Positions 12,414 through 63,563 of a stretch of DNA of 64,000 bases are shown piece by piece. Below the pieces are notes generated by a model. The model made no database searches. It was not told the origin of the DNA and was given only the letters and a program-made list of their open reading frames with translations. This DNA is from Octopus sinensis (taxonomy: Eukaryota), in the NCBI RefSeq assembly GCF_006345805.1, contig NC_042999.1, positions 101,494,001-101,558,000 of the forward strand, read 5' to 3'. The number at the start of each line of letters is the position of its first letter. Positions within the stretch are counted from its first letter, which is position 1. A program made the position numbers and the translations under genes.

Positions 12414-12899
12414 TTCGTCATTGTAAGAGGATCATCTACTTTTTGTCACACTTTATTTCTTTCACATAAGTTATCCTGCTTTACCAAAATTACTGGCAAG
12501 GAGTTTTACAACCATATGGAGTTTTACCAAAGCTCTATACAGAGTACCCAGTGCAATCTATGGACACATTAGAGGTGCAGCAGTATCACTGGAAGACTCA
12601 TAGAGAAAGTAGTCTTTACATATGGAAGATGTGCAGGTGCATCAAACACCAGGAATTACAAGCATAGCTAGGTGGGAGGTAGAAGGGGCAGTCCACTCTG
12701 GACAGCACTTTTGGGTCTGCTGTAGGCAATATATGTTTTTCTGGGGTCCAGGGGCAGCAAATGGAAAGCAGCACACACTCTAGCTACACCAGTGCCACAA
12801 ATGTACAAAAGATAGATTCCCTCAAATGTCAGGGTTTCCTTAGAAGTTGTAGTTTCCATTACTTAGGTAACCAAGTGAGCACTTGTAGAGTTTGTTCCA

Positions 12900-13152
12900 A
12901 AAGCATAGCTCCCCAAGAATAAGAATTGGTTGGGAAAAATTCAGAGAGCTACTACCTCTCTAAGTAATGAAAGGCCTCTTCCCCAGCAAAGAAGGTAGAT
13001 TGTATGATGCCTGCTATGTTACATGGCAGTGAAACATGGGCTGTGACTGCTGAGGACTTGTGAAAGCTTGAAAGAAATAAAACCAGCATGCTCCACAGGA
13101 TGGGTAATGTCAGTGTGTATATACAACAGAGTGTAAGTGATTTGAAAGAAAA
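12900..13152 (+). mobile_element. RTE LINE fragment (same family as 41765-44358)
   Basis: DNA and protein similarity to the large copy: GRLYDA...MLHGSETWAVTAED...LERN...NVSV. Confidence 0.75.
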
Positions 13153-24354: not shown

Positions 24355-24510
24355 GTGGTGGGTGGGTCTTCTCAAGGACAGCACTGTACCACATATCTTG
24401 GTCCTCTGTCATCTCAATCCTACAGTTCAGCATTTTGAGATCAGCCTTCAATACTTTGTCCCATGTCATCCTGGGTCTTCCTCTTCCACAACTTCCCTCT
24501 ATTCTAAGTG
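24355..24510 (-). mobile_element. RTE ORF2 C-terminal fragment
   Basis: GSCGRGRPRMTWDKVLKADL...MTEDQDMWYSAVLEKT. Confidence 0.7.
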
Positions 24511-24537
24511 AACAGGACAGTAAGAACAAAACAATGT

Positions 24538-25584: not shown

Positions 25585-26780
25585 CAAATCAAAACAAATC
25601 AAAATAGATGAACATCAATGGAATTTGTATCTTTGTGATACCAGTGCTGGTGGCACACAAGAAAACCATCCGAACGTGGCCGTAGCCAGTACCGCATCGA
25701 CTGGCCTCCGTGCTGTGGGCACATAACAAACACCATCCGATCGTGGCCGTTCGCCAGCCTCATCTGGCACCTGTGTCGGTGGGACATAAAAACACCATCC
25801 AAAGACCCGGCAAGACTAGTCAGGCCATAACCCGTGGCCCCTACCTGGGACGTAGTCAGTCCACCTGTGCATACCTTCCTTCCTTCTTGTGACAGTTGTG
25901 AAGACCTGTGAAGACCTGTTGAGGCAAGTGAAAATCAAATCAAATCAAATCAAAACAAATCAAAATAGATGAACATCAATGGAATTTGTATCTTTGTGGT
26001 ACCAGTGCCGGTGGCACACAAGAAAACCATCCGAACGTGGCGGTAGCCAGAACCGCATCGACTGGCCTCCGTGCTGTGGGCACATAACAAATACCATCCG
26101 ATCATGGCCGTTCGCCAGCCTCATCTGGCACCTATGTCGGTGGCACATAAAAACACCATCCGAAGACCCGGCAAGACTAGTCAGGCCATAACCCGTAGCC
26201 CCTACCTGGGACGTAGTCAGTCCACCTGTGCATACCTTCCTTCTTGTGACACTTGTGAAGACCTGTTGAGGCAAGTGAAAATCAAAACAAATCAAAATAG
26301 ATGAACATCAATGGAATTTGTATCTCTGTGGTACCAGTGCCGGTGGCACACAAGAAAACTATCCGAACGTGGCCGTAGCCAGTACCGCATCGACTGGCCT
26401 CCGTGCTGTGGGCACGTAACAAACACCATCCGATCGTGGCCGTTCGCCAGCCTCATCTGGCATCTGTGTCGGTGGCACATAAAAACACCATCCAAGCATG
26501 GCCGTCTGCCAGCCTCGTCTGGCACCCGTGTCGGTGGCACATAAAAAACACCATCCGAGCGTGGCCGTTCGCCAGCCTTGTCTGGCACCTGTATCGGTGG
26601 CACATAAAATCACCCACTACACTCTCGGAGTGGTTGGCGTTAGGAAGGGCATCCAGCTGTAGAAACACTGCCAGATCTGACTGGCCTGGTGCAGCCTTCG
26701 GGCTCCCCAGACCCCAGTTGAACCGTCCAACCCATGCTAGCATGGAAAACGGACGCTAAATGATGATGATGATGATGATG
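25585..26780 (+). repeat. Tandemly amplified RTE-LINE 3' end (about 330-360-bp units with about 60-bp sub-repeats) ending in (TGA)n
   Basis: AAAATAGATGAACATCAATGG recurs at 25601, 25962 and 26294. Shares motifs with the LINE 3' end at 41787-41894. The terminal part is the reverse complement of 361-556. Confidence 0.85.
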
Positions 26781-27040
26781 ATATATATATATGTGTGTGT
26801 GTGTATGTATGTATGTATGTATGTATGTATGTATGTATGTATGTATGTATGTATGTATGTATGTATGTATGTATGTATGTATGTATGTGTACGACAGACT
26901 TCTTTCAGTTTCCATCTACCAAATCCATTCACAAGGTTTTGAAAGCTACAATGCAAAGAAGTACACTGTGACTAGCAATGTATAAAGGGAAATAACTCTT
27001 CCGTTTTTAGCACGAAAGTTCATATAAATATATTACTTAC

Positions 27041-38149: not shown

Positions 38150-38942
38150 TACAAGTTAAGGTAGAAAAAGTTCAAGGAGCTACTACTTCTGGCAGCAAAG
38201 AGATTCTCTCATTCAGTGAAGAGCAGATTGTATGAAGTTTATACATTAAGAGTGATAGTGAATGACAGCAAAACACAAGTCTTGAACATGGGGAATGTTC
38301 CAAAGATAAAAAGAAATGAGGTAAGCACACTCAATATGCAATGTGAATATGCATGAACAATGGAACACAACTGAGCTGAGAGAAAAACATGGCTTAAGAG
38401 GAATCAACAGCAATGTACAAGAAAAGAGATTATAATGGTATGGACATGTGATGGCTATGAAGTATGACAGGTGAGAGAAGATATGCCAAGTGATCCAAAT
38501 GAAAGGAATCAGAGGAAAACTGAGGACAGAGAGTGAAGTGAAGGCTGAACCTTGCAGAAGAACTGTCAAAGAACAGCAACAAGTAACATGATACTCTCTC
38601 AAGACCTCTTCCAGCTACCCCCATACAAACCTTTTCTAATTCCTCATAATATTTTAAAATCTCAATGCCTTGCTTAAAGCATCCACCCACTTTCATATCC
38701 TCTTTCTCATTCAAGGGGACACTTCAGTCTTGCAAGTTGGTTTCAAGGTAATCTCATTAGTGCTGGTGCCATGAAAAAAGCACCCTGTGCATTCTGTAAA
38801 GTGGTTGGCTTAGGAAGAGCATCCAGCTATAGAAATCATGCCAAAACTGTGACACTGAAGCAAGATGTGATCCTCTAACTGGGATCTTCTCAAAACATCC
38901 AACCCATACCAGCTAAGAAAGCAAATGTAAAACAATGATGAT
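38150..38942 (+). mobile_element. Old RTE LINE 3' fragment with tail, antisense in CHMP1B intron 5
   Basis: Similarity to the ORF2 C-terminus (RL.WYGHV) followed by the GGTTGGCTTAGGAAGAGCATCCAGC tail motif and ATGATG. Confidence 0.65.
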
Positions 38943-39105
38943 TATTGCTTTCCTAAATAGACTGCCTACACTGCAGCTTATGGAGTTCACATTTTCCTCA
39001 TTTCATAAATATATATATAAGTATATATGTGGTTTGAAAGTAAGTGTGATGTTTTTATAATAGCATGAATTTAATGTTAAATAATCTGAAAGATTATATA
39101 TTTAC

Positions 39106-39870: not shown

Positions 39871-39939
39871 CTTCTCCAAGTTCATAGATTTCATAGCTGA
39901 TTCCATAGATTTTACAACACCTCCCATAGACTGAGTGAC
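39871..39939 (-). CDS. CHMP1B: CHMP1B exon 4
   Basis: Encodes VTQSMGGVVKSMESAMKSMNLEK; ttccttccAG acceptor, GTAATT donor, 69 nt. Confidence 0.95.
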
Positions 39940-41670: not shown

Positions 41671-41764
41671 ATTCTTTTATATGTTTCAACCTTGAAGCTG
41701 CAGCCATATATATACAATGGGCTTCTTTCAATTTCTGATGACCAAATTCACTCTCAAGGTTTTG

Positions 41765-44358
41765 ATATTTATTTCGATGCTCATGTACTTGACTCAACAG
41801 GTCTCCTCAAGCACAGCGGGATGTTCTGAAATCCAAGGTACTTTGAATGGGCAGGGGCTATGCGGAACTGGTGCAGGAAGCATCCCGGGTCTTTGCAGTC
41901 ACAGCATATCTCCAGAGATCTCGGTCCTTCGCCATCGCCTCAGTGAGGCCCAACGCTCTGAGGTCATGCTTGACTACCTCATCCCATGTCTTCCTGGGTC
42001 TACTTCTCCCCCTGATACCTTCAACTGTTTGGGAGTGGCACTTCTTCACACATCTCTCCTCATCCATCTGCAGTACATGACCATACCATCGCAAGTGTCG
42101 CTCTTGCACACCACATCTGATGCTTCTTATCTCCAGCATTTCTCTCAGGGTGCTTACACTCTGTCGTGCATGCACACTGACATTACACATCCAGTGGATC
42201 ATGCTAGCTTCATTCCTTTCAAGTCTACGCATGTCCTCTGCAGTCACAGCCCATGTTTCACTACCATGAAGCATGGCAGTTTGCACACATGCGTCATACA
42301 ATCTACCTTTCACTTTGAGCGAGAGACCCTTTGTCGCCAGTAGGGGTAGGAGCTTTCTGAACTTTGCCCAGGCTATTCGTATTCTAGTGGTGACACTCTC
42401 TAAGCATCCACCTCCACTACTAACTTGGTCACCCAGGTAGCGGAAACTATCAACTACTTCTAGTTTCTTCCCCTGGAGTGTGATGGAATCTGTTTTCTGA
42501 GTATCTGTGGTGTCTATTGTCCCTGTGCATCTGCCGCACATGAAAGCTATCTTATCAGTTAATTTCCCTTTGATGTTGCTGCACCTCTTATGAGTCCATA
42601 GCTTACACTGGGTGCATCTTATGGATTTTCCACCTACACCTTTCCTACAGATCGAGCAGGGCCACCTGCCCGAGGGGGTGTGTGGTGAGTACGCCTTTCT
42701 GCTTACTATAACTTTGGTCTTTGCTACATTTACTCTAAGGCCCTTTGATTCTAGCCCTTGCTTCCACACCCGAAATTTCTTTTCTAGTTCCGGTAGTGAT
42801 TCTGCTATGAGAGCCAGGTCATCAGCATAGAGGAGCTCCCAGGGGCATCCTGTTTTGAATTCCTCTGTTATTGCCTGGAGGACTATGATGAATAAAAGGG
42901 GACTGAGGGCTGAGCCTTGGTGTACACCTACTTCTACCCGGAATTCTTCACTATATTCGTTGCCAATCCTAACCTTGCTGACAGCCTCTCTGTATAGGGC
43001 CTGTACAGCCCTTATTAGCCATTTGTCAATCTCCAGTTTCCACATTGACCACCAGATAAGGGATTGGGGGACCCTGTCGAAGGCTTTCTCCAAGTCCACA
43101 AAAGCTATGTAGAGGGGTTTATCTTTAGCTAGGTACTTCTCCTGCAGTTGTCGGACCAGGAATATAGCATCAGTGGTGCTTCTACCTGGCACAAAACCGA
43201 ACTGCATCTCATTTAAGCAAATTCTCTCCCTAATGAGATGGGTTATGACCCTCTCTGTGACCTTCATCACCTGATCCAACAGTTTAATACCCCTGTAGTT
43301 ATTTCTATCTAGAGCATCACCCTTACATTTGTAGCAGTTGACTATGGTGCTGCTACGCCAGTCATTGGGTATGACTCCATTATGAACTACCTGGTTTACA
43401 ATGCGGGTGACTAGGCCATAGCCCACATAGCCAGCTGTTTTAATCATCTCAGCAGTGATTCCTGATGGGCCGGGGGCTTTACCTGGTTTCATATCCTTAA
43501 TTGCCTTAACTACAAGGGAGCTGTCTATTCGGATAGCTGGTCCCTCTACTGGGTCAACATTTGGCAGGCTCTCCTCCTCCCATTCATTCTCCACATTCAG
43601 CAGTCTTTCATAATGGCTTCTCCAAGCCTCTTTCTTTTCACCAACATTAAAAGCAAGTGCCCCATCATCCATGCAGACACATTTCTCTCCTGTAACATCA
43701 CTATTTTCTCTCACACACTGTCTGGCAATCCGAAATACCCCAGCTCTTTGGTCCTCACGTCGCTGGACATTGGCAAACTTCTTCTTTTCTGCTACATCTT
43801 TGGCTATGTATACCTGCATCCCGCTGTCTGGTGAAGATGAAGTCTATTTGGCTAGCAGCGTCTCCTGACTGATAGGTTATAAGGTGGCAGTCAGGCTTCC
43901 TGAAGTTAGTGTTGCAGATTAAAAGGTTACATGCATCACAGAATTCCAGTAGTCTAGTTCCCTCATCATTTCTGGTGCCAATACCATGGCCACCGTGTAC
44001 CCCAGTGAAGATACCCGATTCCCGCCCAACATGCCCATTAAAGTCTCCACCCACAAAGATGAGGTCCTTGCCACTAGTCTTTGAGGTAGCCTGTAGAAGG
44101 GTATCATAAAAGTGGTCCTTCTGATCATTTGGTAGTCCCGCTTGTGGGACATAGGCGGAGATAATCGTAGCTGTGCCACTCTGTAGGACTAACCTGAGCT
44201 TAAGCACTCTATCGCAAATCCTGACAACCTCTATGACCTTATCCACCCATTTCTCCACAAGGAGAATGCCTACACCCCCTACACCATCCATGTTACCTTG
44301 CCAGAAGACTTTGTACCTATATGCCTTGCCTGTGAGGACCCTAGCTGAAGCACCTCTA
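41765..44358 (-). mobile_element. RTE-clade LINE, 5'-truncated and internally deleted, in CHMP1B intron 3 (sense orientation)
   Basis: APE endonuclease motifs (GVGILL, ISAYVPQ, GGDFNGH, SQIDFI) in ORF 43755-44378. Uninterrupted 653-aa RT ORF 41858-43819 (FVDLEKAFD, QGSALSPLLF, YADD, LRWYGHV). Confidence 0.95.
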
Positions 44359-44731
44359 AATAAAAGATATATACACACATGTAGACTTCTATTTTCCTGT
44401 CTATATTACCAACATGTATATATGTGTATATATATATATTCATTCATGCAATGTCTGTTATATTATGCTATCCTAAGTTGGACAGGGGTATATTTTTATT
44501 TGAGGTGGTAGCATTTATCAATTTGATGTCCTTTCAATCCCCAACACCAACATGTTATTTTTGCCTGTTTCAAATATGATCCCAATGTTCTTTGAAAGTA
44601 TAGTGACTGCAAGAATATATTTCCTTGAAGAATGTTAAGTTGATCAAAGATATGAAAGTCAATAAAATAACTGGTAGTAATATAACAAAATACAGCAAAT
44701 GAAAGAAAAAGAAAAAAATAATTCTACAAAC

Positions 44732-44878
44732 CCTTTTGGTTGTTATTGCTGTTTGTACTCTAGCTGAAACTGCATCTATCCGAGCACTCATTCTTCTGTA
44801 GTTCAAAGCCTGATTTTTCTCTCTGATAGCATTCTCAGCATGAATTTTTGCACCTTCAGAGTTCCCTTTCTGAATAGC
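44732..44878 (-). CDS. CHMP1B: CHMP1B exon 3
   Basis: Encodes AIQKGNSEGAKIHAENAIREKNQALNYRRMSARIDAVSARVQTAITTKR (Snf7/ESCRT-III helix); tttacAG acceptor, GTTTGT donor, 147 nt. Confidence 0.95.
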
Positions 44879-45318
44879 CTGTAAAACAGTATTGGTTAAA
44901 ATTTTACTCCAGTTATCCAATGTAAATTCTATTTTATGTGTATATGAAAGAATTCAATGTTGGTACAATAAAGCATTAAACATATACCAGTTTCTATTTA
45001 ATTCAACCCATTTGATACTAACCCATCTGAGACTACCTTTTTCTCCAATGATACAAACTTCCTGTTTTAAAGTTATCTACATTAAATTCTCTCATCAATA
45101 TTTTATGTCAGTTTATGTCCCATATATCAGCTTAATAGGTTCAATTATTTAGCAAAAATTCTACATTATTTTCAAAATTAATTAAAACAAAAACAGTGTA
45201 TTTCAATAGAAATATGATAGCAAGATGGTTAATATATCACACTCAAGTGGTTAGCTCTTTGTTCTTATCTGTTCTGCTACCCATTGAGAAGAATTACAAA
45301 ATGATTTGCTCTTTGGAT

Positions 45319-47882: not shown

Positions 47883-48152
47883 AATCATCATCTCCATCGT
47901 CATTTAGCATCTACTTTCCATACTGGCACGGGTTAGATGGTTTGATTGAAACTGATGAGCTGGAGAGCGGCACCAGGTTCCAATCTGATTTGGCATGGTT
48001 TCTATGGTTGAATGCCCTTCCTAATGCCAACCACTCCAAGAGTGTAATGGGTGCTTTTTACGTGCCACCGGCACAGATGTCAGTTACATGACACCAGCAT
48101 CGGCTACAACTATGATTTCACTTGGCTTCACAAGTCTTCTCAAGCACAGCAT
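47883..48152 (-). repeat. RTE 3' UTR/tail fragment
   Basis: Links the GCTGTGCTTGAGAAGAC motif (LINE 3' end) to the GGAAGGGCATTCAAC tail and (TGA)n. Confidence 0.75.
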
Positions 48153-61096: not shown

Positions 61097-63563
61097 AGAC
61101 TTTGTAATCAAAACAATAGCAAAGATGTTTATTAATGATGTATATTCCTGCCAAGTTTCATTGTCATATCATAAGTAATTCTTTGCAAATTTAAAGATTT
61201 GTAATTCTATCTTGTAGCCATTTGTTCAGCAAATTTAGCTTCCCAAATATGTTTGGAAAATAGAATGGGTAGAATATGTCACATTTGGTAGCTGGGGTTT
61301 CTTCTTCTAGCTGCTTACTAGAAGCTTCACAACATTGTCCCAAAGTTTAATGAAGTAACACGAGCAATTACCCTTTGAGATTATCACCGTATGAACTCAA
61401 AGTAGTAATCATCATCATTTAACATTTGTTTTCCATGCTGGTATGGGTTGGATGGTTTGACAGGAGCTGGAAACGGTTTCTACAGCTGTATACCCTTCTT
61501 AATGCCAACCACTTTACAGAGTGTACTGGGTGCTTTTATACAGCACTAGCAAGGGTGCTTTAACATGGCACCAGCACAGGTACTTTTTACATGGTACCAG
61601 CACCCACGAGACTATCCGATGCCATCTTGATACTTTATTCATTGTAATAACTGTCCTTTAATGTCTGTTTTCCATGCTGGCATGGGTTGGATGCTTTGAC
61701 CAGAGCTGCACCAAGTTCCAGCCTGATTTGGCTTGGTTTCTATGGCTGGATGCCCTTCCTAATGCGAACCACTTTAAAGTGTGTGCTCGGTGCTTTTAAT
61801 GTGGTTCCCCACATCTGCTTGATGAATTATTATTGAAATGTTAGTGAATCCTTTTATTTTTTCTGTCATGACAGAACTTAAATAGAAAATGCATTGTGTG
61901 TATGTATGTTTAGTGTGTAAATTTTACACACATTAATAGAAAATTTTAGAAAGAAACCAAGTGGTAATTGTGTACTCTGCTTCATTGGACCTGTTCCTCC
62001 TCTCCCTCTACACCTCAATTCCCAAATTTTACCATGGTCTCAGGTTGAGAAACAGAGCCCTAGTGTATTTTAAATATTGAATGAAATCTCTTTGATCTAA
62101 GGTTAATGAGGATTAACTTGAGACTAAATAGTTACTACAATCCAATTAACCAGAACAATGACCACTGCCATCACCAACTTGGAAACCAATACAAGCTACA
62201 CCACCATCTCTAGCAACCCACCAACTTTTGAGTAGCCTACTAACAACAACAATAGTGGTATCGGCATGATAACAATGTCTCTAGATATATGCTTTATATC
62301 AATGCAATGGTGTGTTGAGTAGTGTGTATTTATGGCTCAAATCATAGGTGCAAGGGGCAAATTGCCCATGAACCTGGTAAACCTTCAAGAAACTGTAATC
62401 ATGTAGTACTTCCACTCCTTCACCTTTTCATCTTCATATTTTCATTCTTACAACCATAAGAATAAGACAACAATTTTTGTTTACATAAAACAATTCTTTC
62501 CTAATGCTATATTTTTTAATACTTTCATTATACCACACCCTTCACATAGTTGTCAACATATTTTGTGGAAAGTGCATACCCTATTATGATAGTAAGATTC
62601 TTATTTATCCCGTCATATATTTTATGTACACATATTGTATTGTGTATGTTTAGCAGTTGTTATTTTCATGCTTGACCATTTTCTTTCTGTTGTTTTTTGA
62701 AAATATCAGCTGGAACCCAAACTCAATGAGAAAATTTATTTCATGTTACAGGATTTTGCAATTCAGCTAGTTTTTCAGGAACACATTACTCTCATAGTAT
62801 GGTGATTCCTGTACTTATTTTATTACTCTCTATTCTTTCAAATCACAAAGTTACATATATATCTAACATAGAGACACATGATTCAGCACACTGGTTTACA
62901 CTAGTAAGCATAAGTATGGATATATGAACATACATATAGATATATAATAGACCTTTGCACAGTTTCTATATACCAAATTCTACTTACAAGTGGGTTTGAA
63001 CTCATTATATGATTGCAAAGTTAATCTCTTAACCACATAACCATGTGTATGTATTCACAAATCTCTTATTTATTAGGTTTTATGAAAATCATCAATTTAT
63101 ATCTTTGATTCTGCTTCTTATGGTCCATTGATTCTTATTCAGAGTTAGGTGAGCCAGAGGACCATGTATCATTCGTATATTCTATTTTGGATTGACTTCT
63201 ATGACTGGATGCTATTCCTAATACCAGCCACTTTATAGAACATACTTGAGGCATTTTATCATGGTACCAGCACTAAATAATGTCATGTCCTCAACAAAAC
63301 TAGAGAATCCTCTTCACCCAACATGCTTCATAAATTGATCCAAGGAAAATTAGGTTAGATTATTAGTTATACAGAAAATGAGCTTCATTCAGCTTGATTT
63401 GAATGTTTTACTTGCAGTTACTGGTTATATGAATGAAAGACACCATAAAAAAGAAAAGGTTCAAATAAGTAGTTGTATTATTACTTTAATTAGAAACATA
63501 CTTTTTTGAAAGATTCAAACATATTTCTGTAGTTTTGTTCAAACTTAAACATTTCTTTTACAG

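Follow-up and report, generated by a model that had tools for sequence, protein, structure and literature searches.

A PHD finger within the reverse transcriptase of an RTE-type LINE in octopus, and its possible part in the choice of insertion sites

PHD fingers have been described in ORF1 of CR1/L2 LINEs, reportedly by Kapitonov and Jurka in 2003. In such ORF1 proteins the PHD is often Pygo-like (best matches 2vpb and 3zpv) and has been proposed as a targeting aid, with no functional study reported (PMC4120745). Insertions in the reverse transcriptase (RT) itself are known from R2. In R2Bm, the 6a insertion between RT motifs 6 and 7 reads an upstream target motif through His and Lys, deletion of residues 672-677 (6a) blocks nicking, and a loop of this type was thought by the authors to be unique to R2 among non-LTR RTs (PMC10499050); vertebrate R2s (R2Tg/R2Pm) use 6a likewise (PMC11601368). 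Among LTR elements, copies of spider CopiaMBD are concentrated in methylated gene bodies, and binding by its MBD was shown experimentally (PMC6673714).

Here we describe an RTE-type LINE that touches on each of these systems. The window (the whole 64,000-nucleotide stretch of Octopus sinensis DNA analysed) contains a copy of an element which, like RTE-clade LINEs, has a single ORF with AP-endonuclease (APE) and RT and a short-repeat 3' tail. As in CR1/L2 ORF1 proteins, a PHD finger is present in a LINE and is Pygo-like, but those fingers lie in ORF1 or at the ORF start, whereas the octopus finger lies within the RT palm of a single-ORF RTE. CopiaMBD and the chromodomain chromoviruses resemble it in that a reader is joined to integration machinery and copies are skewed relative to reader-less relatives; they are LTR elements whose reader adjoins the integrase, while the octopus element is non-LTR and its putative reader sits inside the polymerase. 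RTE LINEs, CR1/L2 ORF1 PHDs, R2 6a and reader-guided LTR elements are each known.

Full-text literature yielded no description of a PHD inside an RTE RT, Repbase Reports and most subscription journals being beyond its reach, and the architecture may already be catalogued in those. The pairing of RT and PHD is already visible in automatic Pfam annotations of databases. Tay et al. 2010 (PMC2887409), which lists lancelet and anemone RTEs, has no mention of PHD, zinc or cysteine in the portion consulted. Further background comes from PMC9476566, PMC10124903, PMC3849965 and PMC3747384.

The finger and its place in the polymerase

The window copy is incomplete. By blastn against the intact copy L031 and loci L002-L030, its 5' end is cut inside the endonuclease; blastn also places an internal deletion of ~430 bp near 43815, between endonuclease and RT, and the 3' UTR ends short of the family's (TGA)n tail, known from other copies. 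The features are collected in Table 1. The copy is intronic, as the earlier note had said: it lies between two exons of an ESCRT-III gene, sense to it, in an intron that is CpG-poor (observed/expected (o/e) 0.13-0.24). Pfam Snf7/Ist1 matches to this host gene, which we take to be CHMP1, are weak and below the cut-off.

Table 1. Features of the LINE copy and its host gene in the window
Feature	Positions	Strand	Basis
RTE-type LINE copy	41762..44357	-	blastn vs intact copy L031 and vs loci L002-L030
AP-endonuclease fragment, frame differs from that of RT	43813..44357	-	ORF 43755-44405; Pfam Exo_endo_phos_2 E 5.2e-7
Open frame P0001, 661 aa: RT domain, finger and thumb region	41858..43843	-	Pfam RVT_1 E 1.9e-29
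RT catalytic YADD, aa 339-342	42818..42829	-	translation
RT motif 6 (GLRVNVAKTKVI), aa 368-379	42707..42742	-	translation; profile alignment to 8gh6_A
PHD finger C4HC3 (C396-C439) with aromatic-Pro pair ahead of Cys1	42527..42664	-	ligands, Pfam, fold
W416, conserved Trp of the pocket wall, two residues ahead of His ligand	42596..42598	-	alignment
RT motif 7 strand LEVVDSFRYLG, aa 461-471, closing the finger-carrying hairpin	42431..42463	-	translation; model strands
Upstream exon of ESCRT-III/CHMP1-like host gene, ends approximate	44731..44884	-	reading frame; weak Pfam Ist1/Snf7
Downstream exon of ESCRT-III/CHMP1-like host gene, ends approximate	39871..39939	-	reading frame

The catalytic YADD is invariant in 24 aligned sequences. 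Beyond it, P0001 contains C396-x2-C399-x10-C410-x2-C413-x4-H418-x2-C421-x14-C436-x2-C439, in frame and stop-free through LEVVDSFRYLG, with W416 two residues before H418. C396 to C439 correspond exactly to window positions 42658 to 42527 on the minus strand. The earlier note had claimed a complete C4HC3 PHD finger inside an RTE reverse transcriptase, between GLRVNVAKTKVI and LEVVDSFRYLG, which are normally separated by a short loop. Both parts are borne out: all eight ligands are present with PHD spacing, and the stretch from motif 6 to motif 7 comprises 92 residues in L031, compared with 27, 27 and 32 in three RTE-like families from this genome that have no finger, so that the finger lengthens this interval by ~60-65 residues.

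The Pfam search and structure prediction that the earlier note had proposed both point to a PHD. The isolated finger segment matched PF00628 with 28.5 bits (E 1.6e-6; cut-off 24), while in whole ORFs the scores were 23.4 (P0001) and 22 bits, below that cut-off. C1 and RING identities were rejected because PF00628 scores best and the fold matches are PHD. AlphaFold2 modelled the intact ORF with a pLDDT of 85.8, placing the finger between strands 777-787 and 859-870, and this model resembles L1 ORF2p and R2 proteins in structure comparison. The finger itself reached a pLDDT of 83-93 per block in the context of the ORF and a mean of 72.7 when modelled alone. PHD fingers make up almost all of the latter model's top matches, at scores that are modest (E 3.6e-3 and Z 5.1 at best); the top VIA-align match is Drosophila Pygo (Z 5.1, rmsd 3.3, 53 aligned), with which ATXR5, PHF23, TAF3 and others tie within 1 Z. 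As modelled, the finger has the PHD fold, and its ligands suggest that it would bind two zinc ions in cross-brace fashion.

Where the finger sits in the polymerase invites comparison with R2. Because motif 6 in the family profile aligns with R2Bm (8gh6_A) up to residue 670, just ahead of the 6a loop at 672-677, the finger is placed by alignment in the same motif 6-7 interval as R2 6a. By analogy, the finger-carrying hairpin may face target DNA upstream of the nick. The two insertions differ in kind. In R2 a short loop recognises particular bases at a fixed site in rDNA, whereas the octopus insert is a folded zinc-finger domain of some 60-65 residues, in an APE element whose insertions are dispersed.

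Conservation of the finger and activity of the family

Since a search of the octopus's own genome with the finger region gave at least 150 matches, all of at least 90% identity among the matches listed (26,033 candidates), the finger-bearing sequence is no chance product. Intact copies have one open frame of ~1,100 codons (1118 in L031) with APE, RT and PHD. The (TGA)n 3' tail is present in most of the 40 young copies shown, and young copies diverge from the family majority by a median of 0.08% outside CpG. The family has been recently active in octopus.

The closest named protein is from O. bimaculoides (76% over the region). A member from that species was put in RTE by Petrosino et al. 2022, who list it as RTE8BF6ALB220127 in their VCF and describe it as a 'potentially active', polymorphic RTE (PMC9115989). 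Its VCF variant sites fit L031 at a single offset in 121 of 144 cases, compared with 72.5 +/- 5.9 at other offsets, and two further copies fit 122 and 121 of the 144. The polymorphic RTE of Petrosino et al. is, by this match, the finger-bearing family of the window. The finger is not mentioned in the consulted portion of the text of PMC9115989, where the sole 'PHD' is a fellowship, nor in that of the supplement PDF. The same paper draws O. vulgaris RTE-2_OV with a C2H2 finger and a microsatellite right after the ORF; on account of these two features, compared by drawing only, RTE-2_OV is probably another family.

Finger-bearing relatives extend well beyond octopus, with named hosts among octopus, clam, hydroid and catfish; a few relatives labelled as bacterial MAG are probably host DNA. 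The earlier note had named loss of the Cys/His ligands among family members as evidence against its reading, and we found the reverse. When the query contained the finger, 175 relatives were retrieved, and of the 164-175 residues aligned at each ligand position, 154-172 retain the ligand. With finger-free queries, all eight ligands are present in 100/120 relatives of one set and 118/120 of the other, counting the matches listed. The other members of both sets are truncated, frameshifted, spacing variants or, in one case, deleted across the motifs (P0271), and no clean short-loop finger-less member was found among the 240 listed relatives. Homologue searches for close finger-less sisters returned almost only finger-bearing proteins, and the finger is retained among relatives of ~45-50% identity.

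In a tree of the RT motifs upstream of the finger, 35 finger-bearing rows share a single branch (96/90). These rows, which include L031, remain from 37 picked proteins after those without a long enough RT segment were left out, and two loci gave no usable row. The finger family groups with four finger-less RTE-like octopus sequences (100/97) against four outgroups, in a tree whose finger-less side consists of only those four RTE-like rows, with no named reference RTE, and in which long branches meet. The tree allows a single ancient gain of the finger.

Selection on the finger, another check suggested by the earlier note, was assessed from changes common to at least 5 of 117 octopus copies. 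Within the finger pN/pS is 0.13 (7 N, 15 S), compared with 0.08 in the RT before it, 0.10 elsewhere in the flanking RT and 0.59 in the linker after the finger. The finger is under purifying selection. It could in principle be a passenger acquired in a single event that an exposed loop happens to tolerate, and most RTEs do function without one, as the short loops of the three families from the same genome illustrate. This view is largely refuted by the low pN/pS, by retention at such distances and by the lack of a clean finger-less member among the listed relatives, and we consider it barely credible.

The pocket and its candidate ligands

In the cage of ING and BPTF readers, a Tyr stands directly before Cys1 and a Met or Tyr three residues before Cys3. 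The earlier note had seen the Trp two residues before the His at the cage position, with Ser as its partner, and had compared the finger to H3K4me readers of this type. The first observation is upheld, since W416, a wall shared with the ING/BPTF readers, is kept in 166/172 aligned residues and Ser (S407), at the second cage site, in 157/175. An ING/BPTF-type H3K4me3 reader is not supported. Directly before Cys1 there is Pro and not Tyr in 181/193 fingers; the acidic groove is absent, the first half of the finger being free of Asp/Glu in 142/193; the pocket lines up with Pygo; and published promoter insertions number 0/55 (see below). Typical PHD readers have an acidic groove that accommodates H3R2; atypical members of the fold recognise other tails or DNA.

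The pocket candidates in P0001 are W394, V403, S407 and W416. Two residues before Cys1 a Tyr, Trp or Phe is found in 159/193 fingers, and V403, followed by G-x-N, is kept in 162/174. The K4me2 pocket of hPygo1 is formed by Y341, V350, D352, A356 and W366, and Pygo E360 is invariant and required for binding (PMC2726290). Judged by order and spacing to the ligands, the same succession of aromatic, Val, small residue and Trp recurs in the octopus finger, and its pocket thus aligned resembles that of Pygo rather than that of ING/BPTF. Among PHDs the family profile matches Pygo best, as far as the His/Cys pair, and PF27108 (Pygopus PHD) is annotated on many relatives. The differences are also clear. 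The octopus finger is without counterparts of D352 (the Asp of EVND) and E360, the residue after Cys3 being Glu in 4/193 and Asp in 3/193. Loop 1 is shorter and the long loop 2 is missing, with 14 residues between C421 and C436. Finally, the face of the finger is basic where Pygo's is acidic. Of the 193 fingers, 99% carry a positive net charge, with a median of +6, and the basic positions K419, R/K420 and K/R425 are conserved. The charge, the scarcity of acids and the missing counterparts of D352 and E360 speak against histone binding.

The combination of a basic domain with a conserved hydrophobic pocket, as predicted from these alignments, would fit contact with methyl-lysine together with contact with DNA. 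Complex prediction of the finger with unmethylated H3 residues 1-40 and two zinc ions, with the alignment unused, scored 0.01 against a mark of 0.34, a result that speaks neither for nor against histone binding.

Alternatively, the finger may bind a host protein other than a histone, one that accompanies genes under transcription, such as an elongation or chromatin factor, and any gene-body bias would then be indirect. Pygo offers a precedent, as its PHD binds a partner protein via a second surface and its long loop 2 binds BCL9 HD1 (PMC2726290). Likewise, PHD complexes with non-histone peptides (ASXL2, TET3, VRK1) are among the fold matches, and the conserved surfaces GVGxNSI and SGIxGxL of the finger are otherwise unexplained. 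No candidate partner was found, however, and the loop with which Pygo holds its partner is the very one that the octopus finger lacks, so we regard this route as improbable.

Insertion sites and a proposed tether

If the finger reads chromatin, its copies might be expected in particular regions, and the earlier note had suggested an insertion bias relative to PHD-less RTEs. CpG o/e in the window is bimodal, at 0.09-0.26 versus 0.66-1.01 in most 4-kb bins, and random sites are likewise bimodal. We scored CpG o/e in repeat-masked 3' DNA flanking each copy on contigs C1-C3 and called flanks CpG-poor below 0.5, a threshold placed at the valley of the distribution after seeing the data. The finger-bearing set comprised 40 young copies (of 150 listed, from a foreign query), one of which was dropped for scant unique DNA, and was compared with 60 random sites and with finger-less RTE controls, 20 of the 29 listed copies of one family and all 20 listed copies of a second. 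We refer to control families presumptively as CR1-like and RTE-like.

A bias of the kind suggested was found. Flanks are CpG-poor for 32/39 finger-bearing copies versus 24/60 random sites (P=3.4e-5) and versus 9/40 finger-less RTE copies (odds ratio 15.75, P=1.1e-7), the two finger-less families giving 2/20 and 7/20 separately. Rank tests on flank CpG o/e agree with the threshold result, and GC and GpC are equal between flank sets. Short flanks at other loci gave a similar picture, with 38/48 finger-bearing and 16/52 finger-less CpG-poor (P=1.2e-6); these derive from 79 finger-bearing loci, of which 31 were dropped, and 60 finger-less loci, of which 8 were dropped and which are partly the same copies as the other controls.

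The CpG depletion predates insertion, because the copies are only 0.08% diverged and 26/32 of the finger-bearing flanks are still CpG-poor 2.7-5.2 kb away; copy age and distance thus rule out that insertion itself lowered flank CpG. An artefact of age is unlikely, since finger-bearing sets at 1.9% and 4.8% divergence are skewed (12/15 and 12/13), unlike controls at 1.8%. Against the gene-body reading, young copies in CpG-poor flanks show no more internal CpG decay (44/2,366, 1.9%) than those elsewhere (12/518, 2.3%). Selection against genic insertions would not give enrichment above random. DNA methylation in O. bimaculoides is found on the bodies of genes with constitutive expression but not on transposons, and for this reason low CpG o/e likely marks the bodies of expressed genes. 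The finger-bearing copies are therefore likely biased to gene bodies. The bias could stem from another part of the element, as one finger-bearing lineage was compared with two finger-less families.

Published insertions bear on which part of a gene could be targeted. In the O. bimaculoides VCF, 74/211 calls of the family are intronic, 12/211 promoter and 9/211 terminator, and the 55 PASS calls comprise 24 intronic, 30 intergenic, 1 terminator and 0 promoter (PMC9115989, portion of supplement). The intronic share of PASS calls, 24/55, is well below the 82% CpG-poor share. These calls argue against promoter targeting; having no genic background, they speak neither for nor against intron enrichment. 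Targeting of promoter H3K4me3 is unlikely because the bias is to CpG-poor DNA and none of the PASS insertions lies in a promoter. The finger might still be an ING/BPTF-like H3K4me3 reader that directs insertion to promoters, with its conserved Trp and with the H3K4me3 readers ARID5, TAF3, BPTF and PHF13 among its top Foldseek and phmmer matches, and selection against promoter insertions could mask some targeting. With the acidic H3R2 groove missing, promoter calls in all barely exceeding those in terminators and flanks CpG-poor over 5 kb, we think this very improbable.

We propose instead a model in which the conserved finger in the motif 6-7 hairpin tethers the element's protein to active gene-body chromatin, so that copies lie mostly in CpG-poor DNA; we consider its prospects about evenly balanced. 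In this model, CpG-poor octopus DNA would represent the germline-methylated bodies of constitutively expressed genes. The finger would anchor the particle of protein and RNA to nucleosomes in the bodies of transcribed genes, its hairpin turned, as R2 6a is, to target DNA upstream of the nick. The small hydrophobic pocket (aromatic 394, V403, S407 and W416) would hold a gene-body methyl-lysine, H3K4me1/2 or H3K36me being the most plausible candidates and promoter H3K4me3 less so, and nucleosomal or linker DNA would be contacted by the finger's basic surface. The endonuclease would then nick nearby, and regional bias would be set by the finger tether and not by the endonuclease. Which ligand is bound is the least secure element of this model.

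The chief competitor to this tether assigns the finger no histone mark. As a basic nucleic-acid-binding or structural module it would grip target DNA or template RNA, and the bias would come from open chromatin, expression timing or the endonuclease. The positive charge and few acids of the finger would suit such a role, as would the conserved basic residues and the precedent of R2 6a, which reads DNA through His and Lys. Other LINEs are partly skewed to CpG-poor DNA too. Among 34 of them picked by Pfam score on all chromosomes, 21/33 flanks are CpG-poor, which does not differ significantly from the finger-bearing set (P=0.11). These split into CR1-like copies, 15/25 CpG-poor, and RTE-like copies, 6/8 (7 finger-less, 1 with the loop not seen). 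An ORF1 finger with eight cysteines, for which no PHD assignment was reached, occurs in the CR1-like family, which may or may not be a fair control for an effect of the finger. A simple DNA-binding module, however, would not need a hydrophobic pocket that is conserved as RT motif residues are, and the two finger-less RTE families are either without skew (7/20) or skewed oppositely (2/20). On balance we hold this explanation to be unlikely, although it deserves more weight than any other competitor of the tether.

The tether can be taken a step further, to an old, phylum-crossing LINE lineage that carries an epigenome reader in a target-facing RT loop and reads a gene-body histone mark via an acid-free, Pygo-like pocket. 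We offer this only tentatively, as a proposal less secure than the tether as such.

How LINEs with a relaxed endonuclease choose their insertion sites is an open question, and here a putative reader forms part of the catalytic protein, placed where R2 has the loop that touches target DNA. Because there is a measurable regional bias, and finger-less relatives serve as controls, the targeting idea can be tested directly with one small domain. That an entire folded domain can be accommodated in the 6-7 loop of a LINE RT also bears on the aiming of RT-based gene-writing tools. Should the proposal prove true, a reader within the RT itself would be aiming a non-LTR element, and a family polymorphic in octopus would load itself into the introns of housekeeping genes by design. 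As the family is abundant in octopus and polymorphic in O. bimaculoides, such a bias would shape the growth of introns in those genes.

Remnants and sequence features of the finger-bearing family

Beyond the finger-bearing RTE copy itself, the window holds degraded, older fragments related to its ORF, one of which retains part of the finger. The intact copy, L031, carries a 3' UTR region that matches five stretches of the window, and as each orientation matches the same five, this region is probably an inverted repeat with arms of ~200 bp. Across the window, pieces of it turn up again as short repeats that resemble SINEs or MITEs. An AT-hook-like Arg-Gly-Arg-Pro motif, scored by Pfam under its cut-off, could possibly provide the L031 ORF protein with a second DNA contact.

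Coordinates of LINE-related features in the window and in octopus loci
Feature	Window position	Locus position	Remark
Degraded ORF fragment	12534-12632		Part of finger, 61% identity
Degraded ORF fragments	12842-13150, 24365-24511, 38192-38528
Matches to L031 3' UTR region	358-558, 26519-26782, 38760-38945, 47884-48076, 61408-61797	L031:4545-4924
AT-hook-like motif	41990-42016	L031 ORF aa 1016-1024	Near C-terminus; Pfam E 0.11
CR1-like ORF1 with eight-cysteine finger		L357:420-1550	Also L359, L362-L364

Probable foreign DNA among the matches

The top RVT_1 matches in the octopus genome are near-identical LINE copies (L051-L080) on unplaced, CpG-rich contigs (o/e 0.77-0.99), and lower-scoring histone genes also lie on several contigs with matches of this kind. 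This DNA likely comes from a eukaryote other than the octopus, for instance a parasite, and became part of the assembly. Relatives of the finger family also appear under bacterial MAG labels (P0210, P0418, P0419 and P0485; Thiodiazotropha, Terriglobia), where they likely represent animal host DNA inside the bins.

CpG context of comparison families and of the window

The finger-less RTE family L305-L324 appears depleted from CpG-poor DNA (flank o/e < 0.5), with 2/20 copies in such sequence versus 24/60 random sites (P=0.014). However, in a Pfam-picked set, four of five copies of this family were CpG-poor. Copies of a CR1-like family were partly skewed to CpG-poor DNA (15/25). The ORF1 of this very young family contains a finger whose eight cysteines show PHD-like spacing, and a poly-Gln tract comes after it; Pfam, Atlas and hhalign gave the finger no assignment.

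Across window positions 1-64000, CpG o/e per 4-kb bin is 0.09-0.26 in ten bins and 0.43 in one, and reaches 0.66-1.01 at 24-32 kb and 52-60 kb. This sharp mosaic is likely the footprint of gene-body methylation.
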